A stretch of DNA of 61,462 bases, from IMG/VR virus record IMGVR_UViG_3300034168_000141, positions 1-61,462 of that record; one strand, given 5' to 3'. Numbering within the stretch: position 1 is the first letter of the stretch; each line of letters begins with the position of its first letter. This document shows positions 3,773 through 41,692 of the stretch, one piece after another. The notes under the pieces were generated by a model that did no database searches, was not told the origin of the DNA, and worked only from the letters and a program-made list of their open reading frames with translations. The stretch is from a virus (Duplodnaviria > Caudoviricetes). A program made the translations under genes and the position numbers.

Positions 3773-4130
3773 TAGATTTAATTTTAAAAGTTACATCTAA
3801 TAGTGTAATTAGCTATAAGCTTTAGCTATTAACTCTATGCTTAGAGCTTAGATTCTGAGCTAAATGAGAGATAGAAGTATCCAAGCAAAAAGATTACTCT
3901 TTCTGTTGGGCTCTCATTTAAATGACTGTCTCTCTGCTTGTCGCTTGAGTTCTTTCGCCATTATGAGTTAGTGTCATCAGCAATGTGCACTAACATGGTA
4001 TCTATCTTTTAGAGTAATTGCCTACCCTAAGTAACCTGGAGCTTATACCTTAGCCATACTCCTGAGCTTTGTTACTATCCCGCAGTAGCTCGTTTCATTC
4101 TCTATGCTGCCGTTAATCGATTCCGCACAT

Positions 4131-4214
4131 AAAAAATATAGCCCTAAGGATGCAGGGTGAGAACATCCAAAGGGCGTATAAAACCTTAAATCAAATCTAC
4201 AGTAATACCACCCT
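4131..4214 (-). ncRNA. Candidate structured small RNA or attenuator leader (5' end complementary to terminator loop)
   Basis: TACATTTG box, 4 nt, AGGGUG ... hairpin GCCCU-UU-GGAUG/CAUCC-UU-AGGGC with CACCCU in the loop, then UAUAUUUUUU; same architecture at 35197-35266. Confidence 0.65.
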
Positions 4215-4218
4215 GTAA

Positions 4219-4226
4219 CAAATGTA
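4219..4226 (-). promoter_or_regulatory. Bacteroidota -7 promoter element TACATTTG
   Basis: Matches TAnnTTTG; intergenic; syntenic box at 35271-35278. Confidence 0.7.
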
Positions 4227-4262
4227 TTTAATATGTGTTACAAATTCTACCAATGTTAAAAA

Positions 4263-4454
4263 CTATTTTGGCTGTTGAAAACGTAGCACTGTAATGTACA
4301 CCCAAAATGGCAGCCATACAAGGCCTGTAAAAGCCACACCCACATAAGCGTACCAATGGTAGTTAGATAGGTGTCTCTGATGCTTGTAAATGTTCAGGCT
4401 CAGTATTCCAAAGTGTAGGATAAAGCCAATTAAATAAATGGTTAATAGTGTCAT
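4263..4454 (-). CDS. Small two-TM membrane protein
   Basis: Two hydrophobic segments; 4-nt overlap with upstream gene. Confidence 0.65.
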   Translation of the reverse strand: MTLLTIYLIGFILHFGILSLNIYKHQRHLSNYHWYAYVGVAFTGLVWLPFWVYITVLRFQQPK

Positions 4455-4966
4455 ATCTTTTTTCTTTTTGCTTTACGTTTCTTTATACGTTCAGGAGTAA
4501 TCTCTACTTGCGTTAATTCAGTTAATGCAGCCTTCTGCAAATCTTCTACTAATGATCTCTCTAATCTATCTAACAGCTCATTCATGCAGGGAGTGCAAGT
4601 AGTAAAGCTCTTGTTATCTTTAATGCCAAGATACTCACGTCTGAGTTTAAACAGCTGCTGCATCTCTCCAGCTTGTACACTTCCTCTCTTTCTAATAGCT
4701 CTAATTTGCTCAAGTGTTGGCATCTGCCATTCTTTTTGGTTGAGCGTTGGCCACTTCTTAGCTGGGCAGCTCGTTACTGCATAAGACGCTAAGTGATCTA
4801 CCGGGCAGCCACAAGGTTTAAAGACTACACCATCTAATGTAGTAGGCTGCTTAAATGGATTGATAGCATTTATTGGAGGTCCGCATGTTTTGTAACGCTC
4901 GTTAAATACAGGGCATGCCTTGCAGATATTTATCCTTGCTTCATAATCTGATGTGCTAATCATCAT
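4451..4966 (-). CDS. Cys-rich putative Zn-binding protein (DUF6171-like)
   Basis: RxxICxxC...CG...CGC...SCPxxKW plus a C-terminal CxxC; homologue 35319..35759. Confidence 0.7.
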   Translation of the reverse strand: MMISTSDYEARINICKACPVFNERYKTCGPPINAINPFKQPTTLDGVVFKPCGCPVDHLASYAVTSCPAKKWPTLNQKEWQMPTLEQIRAIRKRGSVQAGEMQQLFKLRREYLGIKDNKSFTTCTPCMNELLDRLERSLVEDLQKAALTELTQVEITPERIKKRKAKRKKI

Positions 4967-5466
4967 ATCTGTAATGAATTTCTTAGTGTTGTTTTAGCTT
5001 TCTGAATTGTCCTATAAAGATAGGCTAAAGGTATCCCTGTTTCTTTCGCCAATGCCTGATAAGAAAAATCATCTAAGGCATAGAGAAAGAATAGCTCACG
5101 CTCAAAGTATGGCAGTCTACTGATAAAGATATCTAACTGCTCATTCTCTAATCTCATCCCTACACTCTTATTCACATCATCCATGATATCATCTTTCAGA
5201 TCATTGCGTATCTTCTCAAACTTCCTCAGCGTATAATTAAAGCTGCTGTTACTACAGCGTGCAGCAAGTCTTATGCTATTGCTTACGTAATTGTTCAGCT
5301 TACCTCTGTTATGAATATCTTGCAGCTTATCCTTATCTGATTCTAATATCTTAAGTAGCGTGTCATGTAAAAGTTCATCTGCTACATCTGCACGCACTAC
5401 ACTATGCGCCACCCTGCGCCACTCTAAATAACACTTATCGAACTCAGAGCGCCAGGTATTCATCAA
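4963..5466 (-). CDS. Sigma-70/ECF-like RNA polymerase sigma factor
   Basis: Region-2-like ADELLHDTLLKI and region-4 HTH (ISRLPYFERELF...SYQALAKETGIP); homologue 35737..36240. Confidence 0.75.
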   Translation of the reverse strand: MMNTWRSEFDKCYLEWRRVAHSVVRADVADELLHDTLLKILESDKDKLQDIHNRGKLNNYVSNSIRLAARCSNSSFNYTLRKFEKIRNDLKDDIMDDVNKSVGMRLENEQLDIFISRLPYFERELFFLYALDDFSYQALAKETGIPLAYLYRTIQKAKTTLRNSLQI

Positions 5467-5788
5467 TAATTATTTGTGCCTGATCAAAGCTCTTGCATGT
5501 TACTGCTATGTAGCCTCTCTTCATTAATTTATTTTGCCATTCTTTCTGATGCTCACTCATTACACCCTTAGCTGTTTTCATTTCAATAGCTAAGCCATGC
5601 CATTCTTTTTTAGGCTCATAGATGAAGATATCAGGAAAGCCTTTAACGTATCCTGTTTTTTTCATCTTTACTGCCTGCTTCATGGAAGTTCTTACTCCTC
5701 CAGCTGAAGCACAATAAAGCGCCTTAGGATACTGCGCCACTAAATAGTTAATAACTGCTTCCTGTATTAGAGCTTCCTCATTCTTCAT
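5444..5788 (-). CDS. VRR-NUC domain nuclease (putative resolvase)
   Basis: E..IQ...KGFPD...AIEMKT.KG.MS..QKEW PD-(D/E)xK pattern. Confidence 0.85.
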   Translation of the reverse strand: MKNEEALIQEAVINYLVAQYPKALYCASAGGVRTSMKQAVKMKKTGYVKGFPDIFIYEPKKEWHGLAIEMKTAKGVMSEHQKEWQNKLMKRGYIAVTCKSFDQAQIIIDEYLAL

Positions 5789-5792
5789 GATT

Positions 5793-5800
5793 CAAAATTA
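5793..5800 (-). promoter_or_regulatory. -7 element TAATTTTG, 4 nt before the ATG at 5788 (possibly leaderless mRNA)
   Basis: TAnnTTTG consensus. Confidence 0.5.
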
Positions 5801-5817
5801 GCTAATTAACTTATCCT

Positions 5818-5849
5818 CTATCCACATCTTGTTAACATACTTATTCACA
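5818..5849 (+). promoter_or_regulatory. Cluster of DnaA-box-like 9-mers
   Basis: CTATCCACA 5818, TTGTTAACA 5829, TTATTCACA 5841 (last fits TTWTNCACA); 11-12 bp spacing. Confidence 0.45.
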
Positions 5850-5863
5850 TATGATTTAATCAA

Positions 5864-5871
5864 TATATTTG
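5864..5871 (+). promoter_or_regulatory. -7 element TATATTTG driving a plus-strand non-coding transcript
   Basis: TAnnTTTG consensus on the non-coding strand, followed by a terminator ~55 nt downstream. Confidence 0.65.
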
Positions 5872-5875
5872 GCTA

Positions 5876-5957
5876 TCCATTTTAGCCTTTTGGTTTAGGT
5901 TTAGATTGATTATTGATTGCTGAATAGCCTTGCAAACGTGCAGGGCTATTTTGTTTT
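5876..5957 (+). ncRNA. Candidate trans-acting sRNA complementary to early-gene translation initiation regions
   Basis: Promoter, U/G-rich core TTTTGGTTTAGGTTTAGATTGATTATTGATT, intrinsic terminator; core matches 9752-9772 and 10168-10177. Confidence 0.55.
5923..5957 (+). terminator. Intrinsic terminator (may also terminate terL on the minus strand)
   Basis: AATAGCCTTGCA-AACG-TGCAGGGCTATT followed by TTGTTTT. Confidence 0.75.
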
Positions 5958-7275
5958 AAATGAATGCGTACTTCGTGTAGTTCCTATTCAGCTCAAAGTA
6001 AGCTCTCATCATAATAGCATCTGCTATATCGGGAGATATCCCTCCGGTGCGCTGGCTGATTGTATCCTTAGAAGTAACTCGCAGCTTTCCTTCCTTATCA
6101 GGATCTACTCTTCTCACTAACTCCAGCTCTTTAATAATATCTTCCTGATATTTAATGGGGAAGGTAATCTCATTCTTATCTATGAGCTCACCTAATCTAA
6201 AGTAGCAGTCAGCTTTTAGATTCATGTACTGAGTGCCTCTTACTGCTTTGCTACCATTCATGAATTCTCTGCACCTAAGACTATCTACCAATCCACCGCC
6301 TACCCCATCAGCATCTGCAAGCACGTTGCTAAGTCTAATGCTGTGAGTGTTCATTAATCTTTGTATCTCTGCCTTTACTTCATCTTGTCTTTTTTGCTTA
6401 AGCACTACTATATCAATACAGCTTAATCCCTTCCATACACAAAGCACAGTTCTATCTTTACCCAAACGTGCTATATCCGCAGTGATGTATCCCTCTCCTA
6501 CATTCATTGGCTCTCTAAAGCAGCGCACTAATTCATCATACATATAAAGTCTATCTGAGCTGTTATCAAATTCCCAATCTCCCTCTAAGAGTCTCTTCCT
6601 GTCCGCTTCAGGTAATCGGCTAAGGCTTGTTACGTAGGAATCGGGTAAGTGTATATTATCACCAGGTAGCGCTTGAATAAATGCCCTGTGTTGGGGTAAA
6701 TTCTGATTCTTATAGGGTAAGTAGAATTGGTTATAGATCCATCCCTTTGAAGGATTGCAAGTGAGTAATATCTTAGGCTTAAGCCCAAACTCGTTTAGCT
6801 TGTACCTGATACGTGAGCTAACAATAGAATAAGCTTTCTCAGTTATCTCTGTAGCTTCGTCAATAAATGCATCTGTAATTTCAAGGCCACCTAAATCAGT
6901 CATCATCGGATCTGATGGATACAAAAACAAATCGGCTAAAATAATCTCTGAGCCATTGCTGAATTTAATGATATGGCTCTGCTGATTATAAATGAAATCT
7001 TCGCCTGCCTTTAAGCCTATTTCATGAGCCACCTGAAAGAAGGTAGCCATGGTAGTCTTTTTAAGCGTATCTAATTTAGCTCGGCCTATGAGAGATCGTG
7101 TACCTGGATACTTTAAGCGCCTAAGAATTTGCCACATGCAGCCAAGCATAGTCTTACCCCCTCCTGCTGCTCCTCCATAGAGAATAGTCTCAACGTCTGA
7201 ATCTACTGAAAGAAATTTAAGTGCCTCGCTTTGCCTTGTTAGTGGCTTAAAATTATAATCTATTTGTCTCTCCAT
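5956..7275 (-). CDS. terL: Terminase large subunit
   Basis: Walker A GGAAGGGKT, Walker B FIDE, TCNP coupling motif, nuclease DIARLGKD...SPDIADA. Confidence 0.95.
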   Translation of the reverse strand: MERQIDYNFKPLTRQSEALKFLSVDSDVETILYGGAAGGGKTMLGCMWQILRRLKYPGTRSLIGRAKLDTLKKTTMATFFQVAHEIGLKAGEDFIYNQQSHIIKFSNGSEIILADLFLYPSDPMMTDLGGLEITDAFIDEATEITEKAYSIVSSRIRYKLNEFGLKPKILLTCNPSKGWIYNQFYLPYKNQNLPQHRAFIQALPGDNIHLPDSYVTSLSRLPEADRKRLLEGDWEFDNSSDRLYMYDELVRCFREPMNVGEGYITADIARLGKDRTVLCVWKGLSCIDIVVLKQKRQDEVKAEIQRLMNTHSIRLSNVLADADGVGGGLVDSLRCREFMNGSKAVRGTQYMNLKADCYFRLGELIDKNEITFPIKYQEDIIKELELVRRVDPDKEGKLRVTSKDTISQRTGGISPDIADAIMMRAYFELNRNYTKYAFI

Positions 7276-8138
7276 TGCACAAAATTAGGTACAATGAGGT
7301 GAGTATCAACAGGTTTCTTAATTCTTTCTAAATTTAATTCTAATAGATAAGCACCCAAAGGTTTAGGAGGTCTCATACGCTCTACGTGAAAGCCCATAAA
7401 GCCCTCATCATACTCTTCTTTATAACTTGCTGTTCTAATGTGATGCACATATCTCATGTTAATTCTATAGCCTGAGTTACTTGCATAGCATAACTCTTCT
7501 ACCATATCAGCATGATGGTAAAGTTCATGCACATGGCCGGTCCAAATGCAATCAGCTCCATCTATCATTACACCCATACGGTTATTCTGAATTACTCCCT
7601 TAGTAACTACTCCTCCTCCTCCTGATCCATGATAATACTTTGTCTTAAATACAAAAGTGCTCGTCTTAGTAGCTTGCACTCTATGTATCCACCAACCGCC
7701 ATAACCACCTACTAATACATTAGAGTTAGCTTCTCGGTTTAATCCACTTACAAATCTCTCTATTAAATCAGTTTCACAGTTCTTTATAATTGCAGTCTCA
7801 TGGTTACCATATCCCACAAATATCATCAAATGAGCATAAGGCTTAAACCAATCTATCGCAGTATTAACTAAAGCATCTAAGTAATTAGCTACGTTATGCT
7901 CCGGTAGAATATCCTGCTTACTTCTACGTGGATCATACTTGCCCTGCATGCAGCAGAACAAATCACCATTAACAGCAAAAGAAATATTTTCTTCTAAGCA
8001 CTTATCTAAATGCGCTTTAAGTAGCTTTCTATCGCAATGGGGATTATCCCAGTGCAGATCACTCATCATTAAAAACTTATCACCGCTTTTGCAAGTAGTA
8101 ACTATGACATTTCTACCCTCTCGATATGATGTAATCAT
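7260..8138 (-). CDS. Calcineurin-like metallophosphoesterase
   Basis: SDLH, NGD, GNHE, YHG, GHVH motifs. Confidence 0.85.
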   Translation of the reverse strand: MITSYREGRNVIVTTCKSGDKFLMMSDLHWDNPHCDRKLLKAHLDKCLEENISFAVNGDLFCCMQGKYDPRRSKQDILPEHNVANYLDALVNTAIDWFKPYAHLMIFVGYGNHETAIIKNCETDLIERFVSGLNREANSNVLVGGYGGWWIHRVQATKTSTFVFKTKYYHGSGGGGVVTKGVIQNNRMGVMIDGADCIWTGHVHELYHHADMVEELCYASNSGYRINMRYVHHIRTASYKEEYDEGFMGFHVERMRPPKPLGAYLLELNLERIKKPVDTHLIVPNFVQWRDK

Positions 8139-8469
8139 TTGTAATTATATTAGATTTAAGCTCCTGAAAATGTTTCTTGAATTCGTTATAAGGCACATCT
8201 ATTACTACTGCATTATCTATGCCTTGCATAAGCGCTAAGGTGCGTTCTCCTACGTAGTACGTGCCATCTTTCCTAAACTCTACCTCAGCTTGAATACCCA
8301 CACATTTGCGAGCATCAAACATAAAGGGGATATCCTCAGCATAAGTAGCCTCTAAGCCTATGTCATCGCTGTAATTCCATTGAATTATCGTGCAGCTGCA
8401 TAGCTCAGGCAATAGTTTAGCGTTTAAATCTATTGGCTCCTTCTTTCTTTTAAATAGATTCATAGACAA
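8113..8469 (-). CDS. Hypothetical protein
   Basis: ORF in operon. Confidence 0.65.
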   Translation of the reverse strand: MSMNLFKRKKEPIDLNAKLLPELCSCTIIQWNYSDDIGLEATYAEDIPFMFDARKCVGIQAEVEFRKDGTYYVGERTLALMQGIDNAVVIDVPYNEFKKHFQELKSNIITNDYIISRG

Positions 8470-8477
8470 AGGTTAAC

Positions 8478-8506
8478 AAAAAAGCCGAGCAATGAGCTCA
8501 GCTTTT
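8478..8506 (-). terminator. Intrinsic terminator-like hairpin
   Basis: AAAAGC(C)GAGC...GCTC(A)GCTTTT flanked by A/T runs, intergenic. Confidence 0.55.
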
Positions 8507-8552
8507 CAAATTAGTTACTAACATCTATTTGTTAGTGGAAGAAATTAGATAA

Positions 8553-8747
8553 TTATATTTTTTCCTCCCGAATCTCTATCTTAAATAGTTCTTTAAGTAT
8601 TTCTATCTCCGCATCTTTCCAGTTGCTAATTCCCTGCTCTCTCAGGCAATAGTTACTTTGCTCTATGCCTAACTTATAAGCTAGGTAGTCTTGCTTGTAT
8701 CCATAGAATAACCTATAGCATTTAATTGATTTGTGAAATGGTATCAT
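8553..8747 (-). CDS. XRE-family HTH protein
   Basis: IKCYRLFYGYKQDYLAYKLGIEQSNYCLREQG XRE pattern. Confidence 0.75.
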   Translation of the reverse strand: MIPFHKSIKCYRLFYGYKQDYLAYKLGIEQSNYCLREQGISNWKDAEIEILKELFKIEIREEKI

Positions 8748-9487
8748 GATTGTTTGATTATTTTTTTAATAATGTCTATGTAAATTAATCTGCTCAGCTC
8801 TATCTTTTGGTAGCCATCAAACTCTTCTTGGGCAGATGGGCCTAACACTACTCGGTTAGATGCTTTAAATTTAGCCTCTGTTTTCTGCTTAGCCAAGTCA
8901 TCAAAGCGTGCCCATACCTCTGCATCCCATTCCGATTTCTTATAGATGCCCTGCCTAAATAAGCGCTGACAGTTGTAAGGTGCAGATATTTCTACCCAGG
9001 TCTCCTTACCATCTTGCCATCTTTCTACATCAGCGTGCAGCGCAGTTAATGGATCAGTAGGTTCAGCTCTTATAATCTCAGGCTCTGGTAATATCAGCGC
9101 CTTGTTAAGCTCTCGCCATACTTTGCTCTTATACTCTTCATAGCGCTTAAATACATCACTCATAAAAGCTACGCTAAATAGATTAAATGCATCTATTCTG
9201 TCAAAGTCTTTACCTATTGCATTGTATAAGAAAGCATTTTGCCAATCTTTTATAGAGAGCTGCATGTAAGTAGTCAATACTACTTGCTTAAGCAGGCTAA
9301 CTTCGATGTCTGAAGGCAGAGATTTAATGCCATTAACTACAGCTGCTTGTGCTATGAGCTCTCTAAACTCTTGCTCATTCAAACATATAAGCTTATCTGA
9401 GCTCATGCAGGCCACGATGTTCTTCTCTTCAGCGCTTAGTAAACGACTGAAGCTCGGATGTACTAATACGGCCAATTCTTTGCTCAT
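8744..9487 (-). CDS. Putative replication protein (helicase-loader position)
   Basis: Follows the initiator-like gene; homologue 40823..41578; function inferred from position only. Confidence 0.45.
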   Translation of the reverse strand: MSKELAVLVHPSFSRLLSAEEKNIVACMSSDKLICLNEQEFRELIAQAAVVNGIKSLPSDIEVSLLKQVVLTTYMQLSIKDWQNAFLYNAIGKDFDRIDAFNLFSVAFMSDVFKRYEEYKSKVWRELNKALILPEPEIIRAEPTDPLTALHADVERWQDGKETWVEISAPYNCQRLFRQGIYKKSEWDAEVWARFDDLAKQKTEAKFKASNRVVLGPSAQEEFDGYQKIELSRLIYIDIIKKIIKQS

Positions 9488-9752
9488 CTTGTTCTGTTTT
9501 ATTTTGGTTTATATCTCTTGCTCTCCACTGATCAGCAGCAGCCTTCCAGCTCTTCATGGAATTCTTGCCTACCTTCCATCCATTGCTCTCATAAAAGCAA
9601 TAGAATCTTTTAGATAGAACTATATCATCTGTGTAGGCTATGATGTCTGAGAGTGATGGAGGTGTAAATTTGATAGAAGGTAAACGCTTTGTTTCAAGCG
9701 CTTTAACCCTCTCCTCTAGCGCTTCGATGCGCTTTAATAAGATAGTCATCAT
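9429..9752 (-). CDS. Replication-initiator-like protein (FxPP...FYESNGWKVG...WKAA domain)
   Basis: Motif common in phage replisome-organiser C-termini; likely start 9752 (A-rich leader) rather than 9803; homologue 40498..40890. Confidence 0.6.
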   Translation of the reverse strand: MMTILLKRIEALEERVKALETKRLPSIKFTPPSLSDIIAYTDDIVLSKRFYCFYESNGWKVGKNSMKSWKAAADQWRARDINQNKTEQDEQRIGRISTSELQSFTKR

Positions 9753-9763
9753 TTGGTTTAGTA

Positions 9764-10168
9764 TTATTGATTCGCCAAATATAACAGAAATCTCTTCCAC
9801 CAAGGCAATGCTACTGCTTTTTTCTCTTTAAGCTCAGAGATATACTTAAAGCCTTTAGGCTTAGTCCATTCGTATTCGGTAATATTATTCTCTGCTTTTG
9901 TTTGCTGAATCTGCTCATAGTATCTATTCTTAGCCTCAATAAATTGATTGAACTTATCTTGTCTTAAATGCTTTGCAGCTTCCCAATCACGTGAGCCCAC
10001 CTTTTTAATAATGCCTACTTCTCGCATAAGTTGCAGGTATTGCTTTCCCATTCGCTCATGCTTGAGTGCTGCGCTTGGTGTCATTCCAGCATTGACTAAA
10101 ACACACACGCTTTTTACTCGCTCTATAGTTACCTTACCGGTATCATAACTAATGCTTAATTGTTTCAT
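9764..10168 (-). CDS. Hypothetical early protein
   Basis: Homologue 39104..39523 (IERVKSVCVLVNAG vs IARVREFCKLVNEG). Confidence 0.75.
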   Translation of the reverse strand: MKQLSISYDTGKVTIERVKSVCVLVNAGMTPSAALKHERMGKQYLQLMREVGIIKKVGSRDWEAAKHLRQDKFNQFIEAKNRYYEQIQQTKAENNITEYEWTKPKGFKYISELKEKKAVALPWWKRFLLYLANQ

Positions 10169-10188
10169 TTGGTTTAGTGATTTATTAA

Positions 10189-10677
10189 TTATTTACTTAA
10201 TCTGTTAAATGCTCGGTTTAAATCTTGGCTATCTATGTGATTTAGAATCTGCTCCACATGACCTCTATACATTCGATCTGTTTGGATTAAAGCCTCCACA
10301 TGCTTAACAGCGTGCAGCACTGTAGCGTGATGCCTATTAAATACCTTGCCTACATCATAGAAGCTCATGCTGGTACCCTTGCGAATAATCCACATAGCAG
10401 TTTGCCTGATATCGTTTAGTTCTCGCTTTCTACATTTGCCCTTCATCTCACTCCAATCCACCTGAGTAAGATTGCAAATCACTTTCATCATATCATTAGT
10501 GAGTTTCTCGTTAATAGATTCTACCTCTCCATTAATTGACTGCCAATTAAGCTCCGGTATCTCACTTTCATTCACAGCTCTGATTAAGTTATCTATGCGC
10601 TTGCGTGCAAAGTGCTGATGATCTGATGGTATAAGCAGAATTAAATCTGCTATCTTTTTTTCTACTGCGTTACTCAT
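10189..10677 (-). CDS. DnaA C-terminal (domain IV) HTH protein
   Basis: RKRELNDIRQTAMWII...SFYDVGKVFNRHHATVLHAVKHV resembles Bac_DnaA_C; homologue 39752..40285. Confidence 0.8.
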   Translation of the reverse strand: MSNAVEKKIADLILLIPSDHQHFARKRIDNLIRAVNESEIPELNWQSINGEVESINEKLTNDMMKVICNLTQVDWSEMKGKCRKRELNDIRQTAMWIIRKGTSMSFYDVGKVFNRHHATVLHAVKHVEALIQTDRMYRGHVEQILNHIDSQDLNRAFNRLSK

Positions 10678-10907
10678 TTGCTATCCTTCATTAATTCGAT
10701 TATGTATGGTATCTCTTCCTCAGTTACATTAGCGAGCTTACCTATGTGTGATACCTTCATAGTAAACGGTTGCTTAATGAACTTTTGAGCTGTGGGGTAA
10801 CTTACCTCCAGCACCTCCGCAAAGTGTGCAACAGTCATAAAATGACTGCGCACCCATGCGTGAAACGGTGTAAGCTTAGAATGGCATTTCATCGTTGCTA
10901 ATTTCAT
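10674..10907 (-). CDS. Small HTH protein
   Basis: FAEVLEVSYPTAQKFI; homologue 39520..39759. Confidence 0.65.
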   Translation of the reverse strand: MKLATMKCHSKLTPFHAWVRSHFMTVAHFAEVLEVSYPTAQKFIKQPFTMKVSHIGKLANVTEEEIPYIIELMKDSK

Positions 10908-11499
10908 TGGTTAAATCTAATTTAGTTTCTATAATAGACTCGCCTTTAAGCCATGCTAAGAATATCTCAGCAGTATCTAATACATCACCTGGCTTACTTC
11001 CCTTTTGCTCTTTGCAGAATAGCACAGCATTGTTTAGAGCTACTGATTTGCTTATAGAATTCTGCACATCAGGTGATTCTTTGCGGTAATTAACAGCGCT
11101 ATTTACCGCACCACCTTGAGCAGAAGATGGACCACTGTACTGCATTGGATTCTGCATCTTAAAGTTAGTAGTCTTTTTACCTGTAGGACCTGTACGCTCT
11201 TCAGCAGTGTAATGCAAGGTAGCACCTACTGCTATCTTAGGGCTGTTCATATCCTTAACTCCTATTTGACCTACCTCTCCATTTTCGAGAAGTAAATCAA
11301 AGTAATGGATAGCTCCTGAAGGTCCATCCCACGTTCTAACAAATTTCTGTGATTTAACTGTTGACTGATTCATAACTGTTTGTTTTATTTTGTTTTTATT
11401 TATGTATTTATCTAACTTACTTGCTAACTTTTCTTCCTGCTCATCCCAATCTATTGATGGCTTCAGCTTATCCCAATTAGGTTCTCTTGTGTAACTCAT
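10876..11499 (-). CDS. Putative single-stranded DNA-binding protein
   Basis: OB-like beta-rich core, acidic tail NDEMPF; candidate starts at 11499 and 11373. Confidence 0.55.
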   Translation of the reverse strand: MSYTREPNWDKLKPSIDWDEQEEKLASKLDKYINKNKIKQTVMNQSTVKSQKFVRTWDGPSGAIHYFDLLLENGEVGQIGVKDMNSPKIAVGATLHYTAEERTGPTGKKTTNFKMQNPMQYSGPSSAQGGAVNSAVNYRKESPDVQNSISKSVALNNAVLFCKEQKGSKPGDVLDTAEIFLAWLKGESIIETKLDLTNEISNDEMPF

Positions 11500-11725
11500 C
11501 AGGATTGTTTTGAAAGTATGAGCGCCAGCTCTCATAAACTACTTTCTGAGCCATTTCGTTGAACTCTAACTCCTCTCCCGGTAGTGAGCTCTGCACGCAG
11601 ATAAATCTGCTTTGGTAGCGATCAGATAACATAGCGATCAGACATAAAGTAGTCATGCACATTATTTTCATCTTCGCTCTCAAATTGGTAGAGGAAGGTC
11701 CCATCATCAGGGAATACCTCACCAT
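11477..11725 (-). CDS. Hypothetical early protein (true start probably downstream)
   Basis: FICVQSS segment matches FICVSSS in 37300..37656. Confidence 0.5.
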   Translation of the reverse strand: MVRYSLMMGPSSTNLRAKMKIMCMTTLCLIAMLSDRYQSRFICVQSSLPGEELEFNEMAQKVVYESWRSYFQNNPDELHKRT

Positions 11726-11852
11726 GCTTTTTAGCTGTTGAGAAATCAGTTAGTGAATAGGAGTGAGCTGATGTATACAGCCTCCATTTGCATCCTTCGG
11801 CATCCCACCGAGATACGATAACCTTACCGGTTATGTTGTTTGGTTTATTCAT
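11622..11852 (-). CDS. Hypothetical early protein
   Basis: ORF with A-rich leader. Confidence 0.65.
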   Translation of the reverse strand: MNKPNNITGKVIVSRWDAEGCKWRLYTSAHSYSLTDFSTAKKHGEVFPDDGTFLYQFESEDENNVHDYFMSDRYVI

Positions 11853-11877
11853 GATTATTAATTAAGTTGCTAATATA

Positions 11878-12114
11878 CTAAATTCTTTTTATACTGATAA
11901 CTACCTCGTCATTTTCCCACTCATACAATGCGCCTTCGTTATACTCTTCTATCCATACTGGAGTATAATCAAATTTGTAAATCTTCATGAGTAGTGGTAG
12001 CATCTGCTGCGCTACTTCCCATGTATCTGCTATGAATAAGTTAGCAGTGCCTAAGCGCTCAGCTATTGAGATTGCTACCTCGTCTAATGGTGTAACTACT
12101 ACGTGGTACTTCAT
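11878..12114 (-). CDS. Hypothetical early protein
   Basis: ORF coupled to upstream gene. Confidence 0.65.
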   Translation of the reverse strand: MKYHVVVTPLDEVAISIAERLGTANLFIADTWEVAQQMLPLLMKIYKFDYTPVWIEEYNEGALYEWENDEVVISIKRI

Positions 12115-12293
12115 AGCTCTACCTCCTTACTTAATAGGATAGTCTTAGTAGGTATCCAGGTAATAGCTTCCTCATACTCAGCCTTAGCCTCTTCAAAGGT
12201 TGCAAATGATTTCTGATAGCTGCCATCAATTTTAAGATAGTAGCGTGTGCCATCATACTTGGCTTGCTCTTCAATTTCAAATAGTTTAGTCAT
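12111..12293 (-). CDS. Hypothetical early protein
   Basis: Homologue 37108..37278. Confidence 0.75.
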   Translation of the reverse strand: MTKLFEIEEQAKYDGTRYYLKIDGSYQKSFATFEEAKAEYEEAITWIPTKTILLSKEVEL

Positions 12294-12295
12294 GA

Positions 12296-12412
12296 TTATT
12301 TATAATTTATATTGGTTTCTATTTTTTCTAACTCTGCTGTCTGAGCATCGAATGTGCCAGCAATTAACATTCCTGCGAAGAGGACTAAGATGATGAGTAG
12401 TGCTTTTTTCAT
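12296..12412 (-). CDS. 38 aa single-TM early peptide
   Basis: Manual translation MKKALLIILVLFAGMLIAGTFDAQTAELEKIETNINYK; homologue 36998..37111. Confidence 0.8.
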   Translation of the reverse strand: MKKALLIILVLFAGMLIAGTFDAQTAELEKIETNINYK

Positions 12413-12434
12413 TTGCTTATTGATTTAATTTTAG

Positions 12435-12465
12435 CAAATGTACTACAATATTTTAGATATGCAAA
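12435..12465 (-). promoter_or_regulatory. Early promoter of genome A (TTTG-N19-TACATTTG)
   Basis: Full Bacteroidota -33/-7 consensus directly upstream of the first early gene. Confidence 0.8.
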
Positions 12466-29857: not shown

Positions 29858-32101
29858 TTATACTGTTGGAAATATAGTTACTTCTCCTGTTATATTAGTT
29901 TGCGGTGGAAACAAAGAATAAAATGTACAACTTCCTGCTGTTACGTCAACTTGTGGTAACATACCGCAGGTAGTAACCTCTGAATAACTAGCATTACCTG
30001 GAGTAAAATCTACTCGGGTATTAGTTGTTATATTAACATTTGAAAATGTATATGTATAATATCCACTTACTAAAACCCAGCTTGCAGCTGTTAGTGTCTG
30101 AGCTGTTAATTTATATATTGTACCTCCACCTCCGCCACCACCCGAATACTGCGGAATGTTTAATGTAGCACCTACCAAAGTAGCTGCGCCACTTGTTCCT
30201 GTTGTAGTTAAAGTGAGCGTGTCTTGCTTAGCGTTTAATGCTGTTTGCGTTGCAGTTGAGATAGGCTTGTTAAGATCGCTTGTGTTGTCTACATTGGCCA
30301 AACCTACTGCTGTTTTGTCTAATGTTTGAAACGTCTTATCGCCTCTGTAATAATCGCCTGTTGTTCCTGCCGTAATCGTTGGCTCTACTGCTATATTACC
30401 ACTACCCAAAAGAGTAGTGCTATTGACAGTCTTTATATTAGTATTGCTAACGAGTAGATCTTGCTTTCCATTAAACGTAGTCCAATCCGCAGAACTTAAT
30501 GCGCCTCTATTCGCTGCGCTTGCTGTTGGAAGGTTAAACGTATGCGTACTTGTCGCAGATGAGATACCGAAGTCAGTGCCACTCGTTCCAGTTGCGAAGT
30601 TCTGCACCTGTGCAGTTAAGCCATTCAATGCAGTTAAGCCTGTTGAGAAGGTAGTTATTACTTCACACAGGTGACTGTTTTCGGTGTGGAGTGTAATCGT
30701 TCTGCCCGAGTGCGTAACGTATATTCTAACCGCTAATCTATCAGTAGCCGCTAACGTAGTTTGAGGTATAGCTAACGCACTAACATAAAGGTCTATTGCC
30801 GTTCCGTTGGTGATGCCTTCGGGAGTAGCTGAATTAGACGCTATCAAAGATAAGGTTGCTCCATCCCATTTATACAATTCAATATAAAATGAAGGAGTGC
30901 CACCGCTACTTGATGCGCTGAAATATGTTTCAAAGTTCCAATTTCCTCCAGGTATCTCTAATAGATTTGGAACATTCGCATCTGTGATAAAAGATTGAAT
31001 GTAACCGTCTGCTGCTATTGTGAAATCTGTTCCTGCACCTAAGACAGGAGTTCTGTCCATTTCCTTAAATGCTACACCTCCAAATGTACCTTGCGCTACT
31101 GATCCGTTGAGGTAAAATGTTAAAGAAGAACCACCGCCTGATGAAGCAGGGAAGTTAGCCAAGCTACCATCACCTCTCACATATTGTGATACAGTACCTG
31201 CTCCTGTAACCGCTATATCTCCACTACTTGTAATGGGACTATTCGCTACACTAAATGCGGAAGGCATTGTTAAGCCCACGCTTGTAACTGTTCCAGTTGG
31301 TATTGTCGGAAGGTTGTCGAGGTCGTTATAGTTGTTGCTGAAACCAACCGCGCTGATGCTGGTGATGTCAGCCTTCAAAAGTATTTCTTCTTCGAGTGCG
31401 TCAATGGCTGCTTCAATGTCTATAATAGTTTGACAATCACCAATCGTTTCGCAGGTTAATCCACTTGCTTCAAGTAAGTACCAACCGCGCACTCCTTCCT
31501 CGTCCGTTCCGTAGTAATAGTTTGGTGCTGGTGTTGCCTCATCATTCACTAACGACACGTTGCCGTTCTCGTCGCGTGTAATTGAATCAATGAACGTTAA
31601 GATTGAACCCGTACCACCGCTTCCGCTTTCAAAAAAGTCGTTCCACTCCGCAGGAATTGAACACGCGTCCCAATAATAAGGAACAAGCAATTCAAGACTA
31701 ATCGTCCAACCTGTTAACGTGTTGTGAAATTCTTCAAGGAAGGGTTCTAACGTGACATTTTGCACCGTGATTAAGTCGCCAAACAAAACGCGGTGGTTTG
31801 TTATCTCGGCAACTAAATCTTCAGCTATGCGTTGAAGGTCAGAAAGAACCTCACGTTGAAACTCAACCTTGTCGTCTTTATCTCTAGGAAGATCCGCAAG
31901 GACAATCTGAAAAGAGAATGTCTTAGTACCTTTTGCGTAAGTAACGTTCGAAGGTACAACGTGCATAAATGGATATTCGGTAAACTTTTCAAGGTCTGCC
32001 GTGTCAATCTGACCATGTGAAAAGGTCTTAAGAATAAAGTGTCCAGAGGCAAATGCCTTGAATCTATCTATAAGTGCGTTGTAGCTTTGTACGTTCGACA
32101 T
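29858..32101 (-). CDS. Fibre protein; as assembled, B-type N-terminus joined to A-side C-terminus through the shared segment
   Basis: 747 aa ORF spanning the A/B junction; Gly/Thr-rich fibre motifs (VGLANVDNTSDLNKPISTATQTALNAKQD). Confidence 0.8.
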   Translation of the reverse strand: MSNVQSYNALIDRFKAFASGHFILKTFSHGQIDTADLEKFTEYPFMHVVPSNVTYAKGTKTFSFQIVLADLPRDKDDKVEFQREVLSDLQRIAEDLVAEITNHRVLFGDLITVQNVTLEPFLEEFHNTLTGWTISLELLVPYYWDACSIPAEWNDFFESGSGGTGSILTFIDSITRDENGNVSLVNDEATPAPNYYYGTDEEGVRGWYLLEASGLTCETIGDCQTIIDIEAAIDALEEEILLKADITSISAVGFSNNYNDLDNLPTIPTGTVTSVGLTMPSAFSVANSPITSSGDIAVTGAGTVSQYVRGDGSLANFPASSGGGSSLTFYLNGSVAQGTFGGVAFKEMDRTPVLGAGTDFTIAADGYIQSFITDANVPNLLEIPGGNWNFETYFSASSSGGTPSFYIELYKWDGATLSLIASNSATPEGITNGTAIDLYVSALAIPQTTLAATDRLAVRIYVTHSGRTITLHTENSHLCEVITTFSTGLTALNGLTAQVQNFATGTSGTDFGISSATSTHTFNLPTASAANRGALSSADWTTFNGKQDLLVSNTNIKTVNSTTLLGSGNIAVEPTITAGTTGDYYRGDKTFQTLDKTAVGLANVDNTSDLNKPISTATQTALNAKQDTLTLTTTGTSGAATLVGATLNIPQYSGGGGGGGTIYKLTAQTLTAASWVLVSGYYTYTFSNVNITTNTRVDFTPGNASYSEVTTCGMLPQVDVTAGSCTFYSLFPPQTNITGEVTIFPTV
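30446..31294 (+). repeat. Shared fibre-gene segment, copy 1 (identical core 31095-31234)
   Basis: Aligns at constant offset 30241 with 60687-61462 and continues into 107-179; differences mostly synonymous. Confidence 0.95.
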
Positions 32102-36682: not shown

Positions 36683-36716
36683 TTTGTTGTGTATTCAAAA
36701 GTTTAGCATATATTTG
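36683..36716 (+). promoter_or_regulatory. Early promoter of genome B (TTTG ... TATATTTG)
   Basis: -7 box at 36709-36716 at the strand switch, upstream of the early operon. Confidence 0.75.
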
Positions 36717-36751
36717 TCAAACAATTAACAACAACACCAAAGATACACAAA

Positions 36752-36976
36752 ATGAACACAACGAAAACAAACAGAGTTAAAGAAGTAATTTCACAAGTAG
36801 CAGGAATCGCAGTTGACTTTACAATCAGAGGCGAAAAGTCTTTCACATTTCACTTTGAAGGAAAGAACGAAAGAGCAATGAACAGAATTGCAAACTATTT
36901 TATTTCAGGCAACGCATCGGTTCAATCAGAATACGATTCAGAAATCGATTACACTTGCATCTTTATTGAAGCATAA
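36752..36976 (+). CDS. Hypothetical first early protein
   Basis: ORF with A-rich leader. Confidence 0.7.
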   Translation: MNTTKTNRVKEVISQVAGIAVDFTIRGEKSFTFHFEGKNERAMNRIANYFISGNASVQSEYDSEIDYTCIFIEA

Positions 36977-36997
36977 CAACTAAAACCAAATAATCAA

Positions 36998-37111
36998 ATG
37001 AAAAAACAACTACTGTACATCGCGCTTCTATTCGGAGCAATGTTAATCGCAGGAACGATTGACGAACAAACAAGAATCTTAGAACAACAACCAAACACAA
37101 CAAACAAATGA
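36998..37111 (+). CDS. 37 aa single-TM early peptide
   Basis: Manual translation MKKQLLYIALLFGAMLIAGTIDEQTRILEQQPNTTNK; homologue 12296..12412. Confidence 0.8.
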   Translation: MKKQLLYIALLFGAMLIAGTIDEQTRILEQQPNTTNK

Positions 37112-37278
37112 AAGTAGAACTAATTCAAAAAACAACGTTGACCGATATGTACTACAAGATTGTAGTCAACGGAGAGTTTCATATGTCGTACAACGACTAC
37201 GACGAAGCGGTGCGCGCTTACGACAAAATCAAGTCAGCCATTCCACGCGAAGAAGTAATCTTATCAAAAGAAATTTAA
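37108..37278 (+). CDS. 56 aa hypothetical early protein
   Basis: Manual translation MKVELIQKTTLTDMYYKIVVNG...VILSKEI; homologue 12111..12293. Confidence 0.75.
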   Translation: MKVELIQKTTLTDMYYKIVVNGEFHMSYNDYDEAVRAYDKIKSAIPREEVILSKEI

Positions 37279-37292
37279 AACCAACAAACAAA

Positions 37293-37520
37293 ATGAACAA
37301 TGAAAAACATCTTTACACAACCCCGTTCTTATTTGAAAACGACGTTAAACTCATTATGGATTCAATCATGCAAACCCAAGATTATTGGGGTAGCAAGAGA
37401 AATGGAACACTGGCTTGGGATACGTTTTGTCAAAGTCGAATTGACGAACTTGAACCACTACTCAACAAACTTGATTCAACATCTTGGAAAGAACTACCAG
37501 AGCCAACAAAAGAAATCTAA
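37293..37520 (+). CDS. Hypothetical early protein
   Basis: ORF with A-rich leader. Confidence 0.65.
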   Translation: MNNEKHLYTTPFLFENDVKLIMDSIMQTQDYWGSKRNGTLAWDTFCQSRIDELEPLLNKLDSTSWKELPEPTKEI

Positions 37521-37656
37521 CTTTATTTGCGTTTCTTCGTCAGCGTCAGCGTACAACCTAACACACAACGAAGTCGCAGCCAACATTGAGAAACATCAAA
37601 AACTTTCGGAAGCGCGTTGGAACGACAACTTAATTGAATATATTTGTAACCACTAA
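37300..37656 (+). CDS. Hypothetical early protein (true start probably downstream)
   Basis: 3' part similar to 11477..11725. Confidence 0.45.
   Translation: MKNIFTQPRSYLKTTLNSLWIQSCKPKIIGVAREMEHWLGIRFVKVELTNLNHYSTNLIQHLGKNYQSQQKKSNFICVSSSASAYNLTHNEVAANIEKHQKLSEARWNDNLIEYICNH
37639..37646 (+). promoter_or_regulatory. Internal -7 element TATATTTG
   Basis: Consensus box 24 nt upstream of the ATG at 37671. Confidence 0.55.
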
Positions 37657-37670
37657 AAATCAAATAAACT

Positions 37671-37961
37671 ATGTACTGTCCTAAAATCACTTACTGCTTT
37701 AACGATGACGATATACGCACGTTGAACGAAAGAATTAAATCAATCGCAAACAACTACAACGACGACCGCACAGGCTGGTTTGAAGTAGACGAACAACAAC
37801 ACCTGACATTTGTAGACGAACAAGACAATATGTACACAATCAGTTTGCGCGGTCGCTTCTGGAAGAACGACGATCCTGAATTTGACTTGGACTACGTGAC
37901 GTTAGAAAAGGACGGTGTTTCGTTTAGCTTCGACATTAACATTTTTGATGACCACGTGTAA
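37671..37961 (+). CDS. Acidic hypothetical protein
   Basis: ORF; its start region is the best match to the 51291-51363 sRNA. Confidence 0.7.
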   Translation: MYCPKITYCFNDDDIRTLNERIKSIANNYNDDRTGWFEVDEQQHLTFVDEQDNMYTISLRGRFWKNDDPEFDLDYVTLEKDGVSFSFDINIFDDHV

Positions 37962-38752
37962 TGGGTTACTTCAAACGGATAAACGAACAATCCGACATTC
38001 ACGACAGTCAGTTGAGGCATATCCAAAGCGACCACGAACTCGCTATAAAGTTCGAAGAATACTTAAATCAATTTAATAACAACAAAATAAACAACAACAT
38101 GAGCATCATTGCACAACAAACAAACAACGGCGGCGGCGGACAAACAGTACCTGCTGGAACACACGTAGCACGCTGCTACCAAATCATTCACATCGGAACA
38201 ATCCTCGACACCTTTCAAGGTGAGGAGAAGTTAGTTAACAAAGTTCGTTTGGTATTCGAACTACCTTTAGAAACCGCCGACTTCGGTAAAGGTGAACAAC
38301 CATTCTCAATTGGTCGCGACTTTACTTTGTCTATGCACGAAAAGAGCGGACTGAGAGCCTTCGTTCAAGGTTGGTTAGGCAAAGCATTCAGCGACGCAGA
38401 AGCTAATAAATTTGACATCGCAACGCTGTTAGGTAAGGAAGGAATGGTGAACGTAATGCACCGCACCGCGAACACAGGACGCACCTACGCAGACATCAAA
38501 GGTGCTTCGCCACTTGTTAAGGGTATGACTTGTCCCCCATTGGTGAACTCGGCTTTCCTTTTGGACTACGATAGCGAAGATTTTGACTTGCGTTTTAAGA
38601 TGTTACCAGAGTGGTTGCAAAACAAGGTCAGCACGTCGGCTGAATTTAGCAACCGATTGGACCGCGCTGCGGATCAAATGAACAAGGCAAAACAGATGCT
38701 TGAAAAAAGCGGTTTAGTTTCTACTGACGAAACAGACGATATGCCATTCTAA
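37961..38752 (+). CDS. Putative SSB / recombination-replication protein
   Basis: VPAGTHVARCYQIIHIGT core, acidic tail TDDMPF; second start at 38099. Confidence 0.55.
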   Translation: MGYFKRINEQSDIHDSQLRHIQSDHELAIKFEEYLNQFNNNKINNNMSIIAQQTNNGGGGQTVPAGTHVARCYQIIHIGTILDTFQGEEKLVNKVRLVFELPLETADFGKGEQPFSIGRDFTLSMHEKSGLRAFVQGWLGKAFSDAEANKFDIATLLGKEGMVNVMHRTANTGRTYADIKGASPLVKGMTCPPLVNSAFLLDYDSEDFDLRFKMLPEWLQNKVSTSAEFSNRLDRAADQMNKAKQMLEKSGLVSTDETDDMPF

Positions 38753-38759
38753 ATAATAC

Positions 38760-38784
38760 GAGAGGGTTGAAATATACCCTCTCT
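38760..38784 (+). terminator. Hairpin after SSB-like gene
   Basis: GAGAGGGT...ACCCTCTC inverted repeat; weak U-tract. Confidence 0.55.
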
Positions 38785-38813
38785 AATTTCAAAAACCACA
38801 CAATCAAAACACA

Positions 38814-39107
38814 ATGAAAAAATTAGTATCACTTGAAAACCGCGTTGAGAAACTACTTAAGAAGTACAAATTTCTCCGCAACAACAACAACGCACTTTGC
38901 GTGAAAGTTTGGGAACAACAGTTCGACGAACGCAAGGACATTACAAGCAACTTCTTTGCTATGTACGAAAGCGGCAAGTACGTCAGCGCGGACAACATCA
39001 CACGCATAGCACGACTTGTTAAGCAATACAATCCAGAACTACGCGGAACAAATGACAAAGACAACAAGAAGAAAGCGCAACTAATCAAACCACTATTAAG
39101 AAAATGA
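38814..39107 (+). CDS. Basic hypothetical protein
   Basis: ORF with A-rich leader. Confidence 0.7.
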   Translation: MKKLVSLENRVEKLLKKYKFLRNNNNALCVKVWEQQFDERKDITSNFFAMYESGKYVSADNITRIARLVKQYNPELRGTNDKDNKKKAQLIKPLLRK

Positions 39108-39523
39108 AAACAAGAAAAGAATTTAACATTGCAAGAGTTCGTGAATTTTGCAAATTAGTAAATGAAGGAATAAAACCTCACCACGCATTGACACAAATGA
39201 ACGCGTGTAGCGGTTACGTTAGACCACTAAAAAAATCGGGCTTATACTGGAAAGAAAAAAACGGAACGTATAAAGCCGTTGAGCGTATCCGAGCAGATCG
39301 TTATGAATTGTTTGTTAAAGCTAAAAACGAATACAACAAAATGAACTACTTAAAGTATGAAAAGCAATCTATTGAAAAGAAAAGGTCTTATACCAAATTC
39401 GTAAAACAAGCAACGCTTTTCAATCAGGCAAAAGAACCAAAACAAAAGACAACAATACCAGTTCGAAAAAAAATACAACTGTCCTTCATTCAACGCGTGG
39501 TAAAATCACTTTTTAAACTATGA
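39104..39523 (+). CDS. Hypothetical early protein
   Basis: Homologue 9764..10168. Confidence 0.75.
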   Translation: MKTRKEFNIARVREFCKLVNEGIKPHHALTQMNACSGYVRPLKKSGLYWKEKNGTYKAVERIRADRYELFVKAKNEYNKMNYLKYEKQSIEKKRSYTKFVKQATLFNQAKEPKQKTTIPVRKKIQLSFIQRVVKSLFKL

Positions 39524-40485: not shown

Positions 40486-40497
40486 ATAAAAAACAAA

Positions 40498-41578: not shown

Positions 41579-41692
41579 AACAATGGACACAAAAGACAAA
41601 ATTTTAGCAGTGATTGGTTTTGTATTATCACTTGCGTTAAACGTTACGATCGTTGGCGGAATTGCCTATATTATTTATCACTTCATTACTAA

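Follow-up and report, generated by a model that had tools for sequence, protein, structure and literature searches.

Positions 5864–5957 of the DNA analysed here, which lie between two minus-strand phage genes, raise the question of whether they hold a stand-alone small RNA (sRNA) gene and, if so, which genes its product might act on. The original prediction described a promoter-like box, a short core and a strong terminator on the plus strand with no ORF, and proposed that the RNA would base-pair at the start regions of a number of early genes encoded elsewhere in the genome and repress their translation. Throughout, the window is the whole 61,462-nucleotide stretch that was analysed (IMG/VR record IMGVR_UViG_3300034168_000141, Caudoviricetes).

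Genomic setting of the locus

The 61,462-bp record contained a 106-nt stretch three times, at 1, 31116 and 61357, and relatives of its first half were found as separate genomes of 30.7–31.3 kb that CheckV rated complete. We accordingly interpret the record as a pair of related phages of ~30 kb, A (1–31115) and B (31116–61356), fused where they have part of a tail-fibre gene in common. The large terminases of A and B were 60% identical. The nearest cultured relatives of terL came from phages of Flavobacterium (48%), Cellulophaga, Bacteroides and Polaribacter, which points to a Bacteroidota host. Flavobacterium phage 11b, the source of the nearest terL (48%), had a different gene layout, and its annotation, which was the part examined, contained no sRNA-like element. 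A megablast search of positions 4000–9000 against cultured phages gave no match.

All ORFs of ≥100 aa in phage A (1–31115) were on the minus strand. The sRNA locus was situated within the 167 bp that separate the terL stop (5956) from a VRR-NUC nuclease gene, which starts at 5788 and in A was followed by a sigma-factor gene. No integrase, repressor circuit or immunity genes were found among the ORFs scanned; a weak repressor-like protein was encoded at 8553–8747 (phrog_3, E=7e-4). The gene starting at 9752, a proposed target that had been labelled initiator-like, encodes a protein of unknown function (phrog_15768), and the DnaA-like gene is the one at 10189–10677; we have dropped the label.

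A conserved structured RNA is predicted on the plus strand

Every element of the proposed stand-alone cassette was located where it had been placed, and the features of the locus were as follows.

5793–5800, minus strand: divergent -7 box TAATTTTG, preceding the VRR-NUC gene (ATG at 5788)
5828–5851, plus strand: tandem 12-mers CTTGTTAACATA CTTATTCACATA, immediately upstream of the sRNA -7 box
5864–5871, plus strand: sigma-A type -7 box TATATTTG (consensus TAnnTTTG), putative sRNA promoter
5876–5957, plus strand: predicted sRNA of ~80 nt, 5' end placed from the -7 box, 3' end in the U tract
5884–5901, plus strand: stem-loop 1 (stem 5884–5888/5897–5901) with seed 1, the 8-nt loop UUUGGUUU (5889–5896)
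5907–5918, plus strand: single-stranded linker UGAUUAUUGAUU, seed 2, invariant in the alignment apart from an optional T in one clade (TGATTATTTGATT)
5922–5957, plus strand: predicted Rho-independent terminator (13-bp stem, loop AACG, U tract)

A terL search of viral contigs yielded 80 close relatives. The intergenic block was present in 73 of these and comprised 63 distinct sequences; structure analyses (alignment, MAFFT columns, RNAalifold and covariance model) were performed on 53 distinct sequences. Within these 53, the sRNA consisted of a variable 5' stretch of ~12 nt, stem-loop 1, a spacer of variable length, the linker and the terminator. The sRNA as it stands in the window folded at -27.8 kcal/mol (z=-3.65). 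When extracted without an alignment, the loop read TTTGGTTT in 52 sequences and TATGGTTT in 1. The stem that closes it took several forms, most often AGCCT/AGGCT (16) or TTGCT/AGCAA (14, plus 6 longer or shorter) and more rarely TTAGCCT/AGGTTAA (7), AGCCT/AGGTT (3), AGCTC/GAGCT (2) or TTACCT/AGGTAA (1), and it was reduced to 2 pairs in just 2 of the 53 sequences. In MAFFT columns, 3 of its 5 pairs had changed on both sides and 100% of cells were paired. The terminator hairpin at 5922–5951 had 13 pairs followed by TGTTTT (scan tail TGTTTTAAAT); RNAalifold assigned it 14 pairs, 4 of which were compensatory, with both sides changed.

Strand was indicated by the wobble pairs. Across the 931 pair cells of both helices, 99.2% were paired on the plus strand vs 81.5% on the minus strand, and a U.G wobble was found within the terminator stem on the plus strand in 53/53 sequences. 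A total of 167 of the 931 cells were G.U on the plus strand (equal to A.C on the minus strand) and only 2 were A.C on the plus strand, which indicates that the structure belongs to a plus-strand RNA. Both helices together contained 7 pairs with double changes, for a covariation score of 0.302 vs 0.186 in shuffled alignments (reached by 0/500 shuffles), and sliding the 3' partner by 1–3 columns as a control left 21–54% of cells paired. No conserved ORF was found in the sRNA, and relatives differed by spacer indels of 1–8 nt.

The covariance model built from the 53 distinct sequences found the sRNA locus at 98.7 bits (E=4.8e-20) as the sole locus in the window, and matched 54 of 100 further IMG/VR loci retrieved by a loose pattern. 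The family has >100 members in viral metagenomes. The same loose pattern matched at least 120 stretches of bacterial genomes; of the 80 listed, none scored with the covariance model, and we rejected these stretches as chance matches. Rfam returned zero matches at the gathering threshold for the whole window, and with E up to 10 only sub-threshold look-alikes for 5780–5990 (mir-980, 23.5 vs 47 bits; isrJ, 20.2 vs 37). We rate the phage A RNA as a new RNA family. These results indicate that the prediction of a conserved plus-strand small-RNA gene at 5864–5957 holds.

The putative promoter is conserved and has a divergent partner

Among the 63 distinct relatives, the -7 box read TATATTTG in 36, TATCTTTG in 26 and TATCTTTA in 1. 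TAnnTTTG was therefore kept in 62/63, with TATCTTTA as the only misfit, and the 10 nt upstream were free to vary. The distance from the end of the box to the loop was 15–17 nt, again in 62/63. According to extracts from a study of Bacteroidota initiation (PMC9723704), the sigma-A consensus box of this phylum is placed at -12 to -5, which would put the transcript start near 5876. Set against the features by which Bacteroidota sRNAs are recognised, the locus has an intrinsic terminator at its 3' end on the same strand, a conserved TAnnTTTG box from which the start itself is predicted, and a conserved unpaired seed that is complementary, in silico, to translation initiation regions.

The two-copy 12-mer was also found in 62 of the 63 distinct relatives; further copies in the window were not above chance (10 matches at ≤2 mismatches vs 10.1 expected). 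These repeats may be a -33 region or a regulator site common to two divergent promoters. On the other side of them, CAAAATTA was present in 63/63 distinct relatives as the minus-strand box before VRR-NUC. If the -12 to -5 rule, as given in those extracts (PMC9723704), is applied to the box at 5793–5800, the VRR-NUC mRNA is predicted to be leaderless, starting on, or 1 nt ahead of, the A of its ATG.

The hairpin is not explained as a terL terminator

The original prediction had itself named a simpler possibility, namely that the hairpin is merely the terL terminator. Such a terminator might be bidirectional, with the remainder ordinary intergenic sequence. The window by itself would fit this, as the hairpin ended 5 nt from the terL stop codon and the predicted RNA ended at ~5957, within reach of that codon (5956–5958). 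The hairpin likewise adjoined terL in 17 of the 73 relatives. In 55/73, however, 65–340 extra non-coding bases were present between the terL stop and the hairpin (one of the 73 loci was mis-measured in these spacing counts), and the hairpin stayed joined to the conserved core, its U tract pointing away from terL. A terminator of terL would have its U tract and best pairing on the minus strand and a fixed position after the stop codon; here the U tract and G.U pairs were on the strand opposite terL, and the minus-strand form of the hairpin had an internal mismatch and no U tract, making it a poor terminator. In seven relatives with extra bases inserted at this place, Rfam identified no family. 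No ORF was found opposite 5876–5955, and the RNA overlapped no gene. We consider the terL terminator explanation hardly credible.

No homologue was found in phage B, in which the early module is inverted

It had also been claimed that B has an analogous cassette. This was not supported: the covariance model found nothing in the B half of the window (best E=1.7 at 38750–38829, a plain intergenic hairpin), and no homologue was detected in 80 B-type terL loci searched over ±4 kb, a span that stops short of the place upstream of VRR-NUC (best E=0.84). In B, the minus strand encodes the VRR-NUC/sigma-factor operon, as in A, but the plus strand encodes terL and the early genes; the early module, to which terL belongs, is thus flipped in one phage relative to the other. 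A plus-strand TATATTTG box at 36709–36716, which on this layout must drive the B early operon, was found 67 nt from the VRR-NUC start, and the A box is 75 nt from the VRR-NUC ATG. The sRNA promoter thus appears to occupy the place equivalent to that of the B early-operon promoter.

The inversion and the similar spacing of the two boxes could mean that the A locus is a leftover promoter, the old early promoter left beside VRR-NUC when the module was flipped from a B-type layout, with a protective terminator, by which antisense firing into terL is stopped, and that the transcript has no function. Nevertheless, a co-varying stem, an invariant 8-nt loop and a 12-nt linker would not be expected across 53 distinct sequences of a functionless transcript, nor would such a transcript be expected to track changes in distant leaders (see below). 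We regard a leftover promoter as improbable.

Both seeds match start regions of early genes

The words of the core that had been reported to recur at the starts of early genes were found at the positions claimed (9752, 10168, 11852, 12293 and 12412). The word TTTGGTTTAG occurred on the plus strand at 5889, 9752 and 10168 and on the minus strand at 43436 (4 vs 0.35 expected, reached by 0/100 shuffles), and ATTATTGATT occurred on the plus strand at 5909 and 9763 and on the minus strand at 29657 (3 vs 0.34 expected). In addition, TTATTGATT was present at 12417 beside the 12412 start, and AATAATCA at the 12293 and 11852 starts. Four candidate target sites were delineated.

12417–12425, minus strand: site in the leader of the first early gene, AAUCAAUAA at -13 to -5, complementary to seed 2
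11839–11857, minus strand: site at the 11852 start, AAUAAUCA-UG-AAUAAACCAAA, with matches to both seeds, order as in the RNA
10168–10177, minus strand: site at the 10168 start, CUAAACCAAA ending on the A of AUG, complementary to seed 1
9752–9772, minus strand: site at the 9752 start, AAUCAAUAAU-A-CUAAACCAAA(UG), with a 10 nt match to each seed

The gene with the 12412 start is the first early gene and encodes a small membrane-type peptide behind an 18-nt leader; the A early promoter, a canonical TTTG-N19-TACATTTG, was located 18 nt before it on the minus strand (12435–12442). Matches spanned -13 to +13 and often covered the A of AUG, and at the 9752 and 11852 starts both seeds matched in the order needed for antiparallel pairing. 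The same pattern was observed for orthologous genes in five complete relatives. The word TAAACCAAA was present at +5 to +13 in 4 of 6 genomes with an 11852-type gene, and (U)AAACCAA stood directly before the AUG of the 9752-type gene in 11/11 genomes and was kept in 8/8 distinct sequences. At the position of the 10168 gene, five relatives had AAUCAAUAAUCAUG instead, a 12–13 nt match to seed 2, and T3-type relatives (defined below) had AAUCAAAUAAUCAUG. Matches at the 8747 and 9487 starts were not conserved in relatives, and these two candidates were dropped. A protein atlas look-up gave nothing usable for the 134-aa target protein; for the 107-aa target protein it gave unnamed viral clusters and a sub-threshold DnaT-like lead at 0.77.

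We compared these matches with shuffled seeds in start windows (-35 to +15) around the 42 starts on the minus strand of A. Of these windows, 6 contained a stretch of ≥9 nt perfectly complementary to 5886–5921, vs 1.19 for dinucleotide shuffles of the seed (p=0.003) and 0.37 for random non-start windows. By module, such complements were found at 6/15 A early starts (null 0.62, p<0.002), with controls at chance for A late (1/27; 0.66), B early (1/16; 0.79) and B late (1/33; 1.31) starts, bearing on a split into early and late that was drawn post hoc, when the matches had already been seen, and with two ORFs flagged in the original prediction added. Duplex energies of the loop seed on early starts also surpassed shuffles (minimum p=0.01; 0/300 reached the top-3 sum or the mean), and on late start regions they did not. 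Energies of the A/U-rich linker seed were no better than those of shuffles (p 0.2–0.4), and those of the whole 36-nt seed over the 42 start regions were marginal (minimum p=0.23, top-3 p=0.06, top-5 p=0.05). Complementarity beyond shuffles was thus seen for perfect complements and for the energies of the loop seed, marginally for those of the whole seed, and not for those of the linker.

Similar A/C-rich words were also observed in leaders of phage B, for example at 36976–36999. Part of the match between the RNA and the A leaders therefore reflects a shared leader vocabulary.

One lineage carries matched changes in the RNA and its leaders

Relatives carried two types of RNA, T2 (UUAUUGAUU) and T3, whose linker contains one additional U (UUAUUUGAUU). 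T2 RNAs accompanied leaders with AAUCAAUAA, and T3 RNAs accompanied AAUCAAAUAA: across 16 genomes or large contigs, counting on the mRNA strand with the RNA locus left out, T2 members had 27 copies of AAUCAAUAA and 1 of AAUCAAAUAA, and T3 members had 7 and 11, respectively (Fisher 2e-5). Orthologous leaders were then compared across 157 loci or genomes with duplicates removed. The leader of the first early gene read AAAUCAAUAAGCAAAUG in 15/15 T2 members and had an extra A in 3 of 4 T3 members (short/long form, 15/0 vs 1/3). Likewise, the leader of the MKQ gene read AAUCAAUAAU(C/U)... in 15 of 16 T2 members and AAUCAAAUAAU(C/U)... in 8/8 T3 members.

The Fisher values for these comparisons (2e-5, 0.004 and 1e-5) are inflated by shared ancestry and overstate the evidence, because T3 genomes formed a single group on the terL tree, with 1 change. 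The co-variation is that of one lineage in which three sites have coincident, complementary 1-nt changes in A/T runs. There were two exceptions, one genome with a T3 RNA and the short form of the first-gene leader (G012) and one locus with a T2 RNA and the long form of the MKQ leader (L187). The sole loop variant, UAUGGUUU (L029/G006), showed no compensating change in its AAACCAAA sites. Co-variation of core and leaders, which the original prediction had proposed to look for in relatives, was therefore seen as an extra U matched by an extra A in two orthologous leaders, and it was confined to one lineage and to the linker.

Matched words could alternatively be DNA operators for a phage regulator (AATCA-N2/3-AATCA), with the one-base change reflecting an altered specificity of that protein. 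The word does hold a direct repeat of AATCA, the first-gene site is at +6 to +14 of the early-promoter transcript, a classic operator position, and the weak repressor-like protein described above could be a binding partner. The remaining sites, however, were in intra-operon gaps of 12–20 nt and on start codons, with no promoter near, and start regions were matched by the loop as well as by the linker, whose words are unrelated. Moreover, the copy at the locus is embedded in a unit of promoter, co-varying stem and plus-only G.U pairs, which a DNA site would not need. An operator function is, in our estimation, decidedly improbable.

A model for repression of early-gene translation

We propose that the locus encodes a putative trans-acting antisense repressor of early-gene translation, a reading that we hold to be somewhat probable from the sequence evidence. 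Host RNA polymerase with sigma-A would start at ~5876, beyond TATATTTG, and stop at the hairpin and U tract (5922–5957), so that a plus-strand RNA of ~80 nt would arise between terL and the VRR-NUC gene. This RNA would consist of a 5-bp stem-loop showing the loop UUUGGUUU, the unpaired UGAUUAUUGAUU and the terminator, and its invariant segments would act in trans on genes 4–6.5 kb away (12412, 11852, 10168 and 9752), pairing with their start codons and short A/C-rich leaders. Bacteroidota ribosomes load on unstructured A-rich leaders. As initiation in this phylum is also not based on Shine-Dalgarno pairing, according to extracts from PMC9723704, a duplex at -13 to +13 would be expected to block initiation, and the synthesis of early proteins would be shut down or throttled.

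Repression is the direction of effect that we infer, since GibS represses across start codons without Hfq, as described in excerpts of PMC7366714, and initiation lacks Shine-Dalgarno pairing (PMC9723704, in extracts); transcription and timing are likewise predicted. Of the multi-target repressor that had been envisaged, the stand-alone sRNA and seeds complementary to several early starts were recovered, and the repressor action belongs to the conditional part of this model.

A different function would act in cis only: collision or pairing of the RNA with read-through RNA would insulate the VRR-NUC, sigma-factor and late genes, and the leader matches would be incidental. Read-through from terL is plausible given the internal mismatch and missing U tract of the minus-strand hairpin; the neighbouring genes are all co-oriented, and the early operon is without a good terminator after terL. 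RNA data were restricted to one metatranscriptome run available as contigs (0.07 word share), which contained only relatives 85–95% alike to the window and from which strand, ends and level could not be read. One strandless RNA-library contig of a relative joined the sRNA region to the 3' end of terL (5824–5958 plus 5969–6633), in agreement with read-through. A purely cis-acting antisense RNA needs no set sequence, yet the loop and linker were invariant while the stems and spacer changed. A cis-only function also leaves unexplained both the enrichment confined to A early starts and the matching extra base in leaders 4–6.5 kb away. We consider it unlikely as the whole explanation. A cis effect on terL read-through may nonetheless operate alongside the trans role, since transcription of the early genes may continue past the poor minus-strand terminator, through the RNA gene and on to the late genes.

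If the RNA does repress in trans, it may explain how early genes are switched off in small phages with genes oriented on a single strand. To our knowledge, phage trans-acting sRNAs are known from a handful of Proteobacteria phages, and Bacteroidota lack Hfq. A full-text search, whose listings were mostly unrelated papers, found no published trans-acting sRNA in a Bacteroidota phage. The computational support is unusually complete, comprising the box, two co-varying helices, strand-specific wobbles, >100 members, early-only enrichment and a matched one-base change, and the locus offers a compact example, open to direct testing, of how translation may be controlled in a phylum without Shine-Dalgarno pairing or Hfq.

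Comparison with known systems

GibS of Bacteroides thetaiotaomicron is, in the excerpts of its description that we draw on (PMC7366714), an intergenic sRNA that starts behind a TAnnTTTG-type box and ends at an intrinsic terminator, in which two conserved unpaired seeds pair across start codons and repress without Hfq. The phage A RNA is similar in its TAnnTTTG box, terminator and two seeds that match start regions. GibS is chromosomal, with a seed at its 5' end and metabolic targets (PMC7366714, same excerpts), whereas the phage A RNA is phage-borne and matches phage genes; no homology between them was seen. PreS of lambda and VpdS of vibriophage VP882 are trans-acting phage sRNAs that regulate mRNAs in infection; as summarised in part of the report on them (bioRxiv 10.1101/2024.10.31.621285), they are Hfq-dependent, belong to Proteobacteria phages and have mainly host-gene targets. 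The phage A RNA shares with them that it is phage-encoded and, as proposed here, trans-acting, but it occurs in a freshwater Bacteroidota-type phage and matches that phage's own early genes.

Among older examples, lambda OOP RNA and P22 sar RNA are short cis-antisense RNAs. Each has a promoter and an intrinsic terminator of its own and overlaps the gene that it targets. The phage A RNA resembles these in having a putative promoter and terminator of its own and in being oriented against its neighbour genes, but its best matches are 4–6.5 kb away, and the overlap with a regulated gene on the opposite strand that defines cis-antisense RNAs was not found. The proposed function is also like that of the T4 RegA protein, which turns off the translation of multiple early mRNAs by covering the region around the start codon; the agent is a protein in T4 and would be an RNA in phage A.

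A further parallel is with the c4 RNAs of P1 and P7 and the CI RNA of P4, small phage RNAs in which two short segments pair with leaders of their own operon and block expression. Specificity types of c4/CI RNAs are distinguished by a few bases at which the RNA and its target vary together. These RNAs are excised from the transcript that they regulate, serve antirepressor or immunity control in temperate enterobacterial phages and act partly via termination. The phage A RNA likewise has two complementary seeds, and its T2/T3 types co-vary with two leaders, in a single lineage. It has the two co-varying segments of the c4 type without processing from the same transcript or an immunity operon, and it differs as a stand-alone convergent gene on the strand opposite all of its targets, with several targets in the early operon. 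More speculatively, and in our judgement rather unlikely, the RNA and its co-varying leaders could form an RNA-based specificity system in a virulent-looking lineage, one in which a single RNA sets when early translation ceases in a host without Shine-Dalgarno pairing and, at co-infection, also silences the early genes of close relatives with the same leader type. In that case T3 would represent an escape or hetero-immune type, similar to the split between P1 and P7 and encoded by a stand-alone gene.

Make-up of the record and orientation of the early module

The 61.5 kb record is classed as being of the direct terminal repeats type. It appears to consist of the genomes of two related phages, A and B, of ~30 kb each, joined via a common 106–179 nt stretch of a tail-fibre gene. 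Separate ~30–31 kb contigs exist for relatives of either half, several of which are rated complete.

Features of the two halves (window coordinates)
1–106, 31116–31221 and 61357–61462: repeated stretch of shared tail-fibre gene sequence
12296–12412 (A, first early gene) and 36999–37110 (B, second early gene): short hydrophobic peptide gene

Relative to the VRR-NUC gene and late operon, the entire early module, including terL, lies in opposite orientation in A (5956–12442) and B (36709–43012), and the two opposed TA(T/C)ATTTG promoters of A (5864, plus strand; 12442, minus strand) coincide with the end-points of this inversion. The early hydrophobic peptide (MKKALL.../MKKQLL...), encoded immediately downstream of the early promoter, is conserved across both phages.

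Promoter region and intergenic block beside the A RNA

The A RNA is the predicted ~80-nt sRNA between terL and VRR-NUC.

Elements between the A RNA and VRR-NUC (window coordinates)
5788–5800, minus strand: TAATTTTG and, 4–5 nt after it, the VRR-NUC start codon
5828–5851: tandem 12-mers CTTGTTAACATA and CTTATTCACATA, between two divergent -7 boxes

Among 63 distinct relatives, TAATTTTG was unchanged in all 63 and the tandem 12-mer pair was kept in 62; a search across the window for extra copies of the 12-mers found none above chance. When the -12 to -5 rule was applied to TAATTTTG, the predicted transcription start fell on the A of the AUG or 1 nt before it, and by this rule the mRNA of the VRR-NUC/sigma-factor operon would be leaderless.

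On the terL side, 55 of 73 relatives carry a non-coding segment of 65–340 nt between the terL stop and the terminator of the RNA (for example, locus L005, 4321–4648), which is absent from the window. All but one of the gaps exceeding 90 nt fell within a single similarity cluster. Most of these segments lacked an ORF of at least 30 aa (the longest seen was 49 aa). The seven relatives with the segment that were compared with Rfam matched no family, and the L005 copy folded with a z-score of -2.8. Possible identities for the segment are a second non-coding element and a site related to packaging.

Hairpin and leader word in phage B

Features of phage B (window coordinates)
38760–38783, minus strand: 8-bp G+C-rich hairpin between two plus-strand early genes
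43436–43445: CTAAACCAAA, 5 nt ahead of a small ORF start (43451), downstream of terL

The original prediction held that B carries an sRNA cassette analogous to that of A, by which the hairpin at 38760–38783 may have been meant. This hairpin shows no homology with the A RNA (E = 1.7), and no clear U tract was found beside it on either strand; the analogy was not borne out. Across 80 B-type terL loci, CTAAACCAAA occurred 62 times on the sense strand compared to once on the opposite strand; this recurrence indicates that CTAAACCAAA is a leader word common to a phage group without the RNA.
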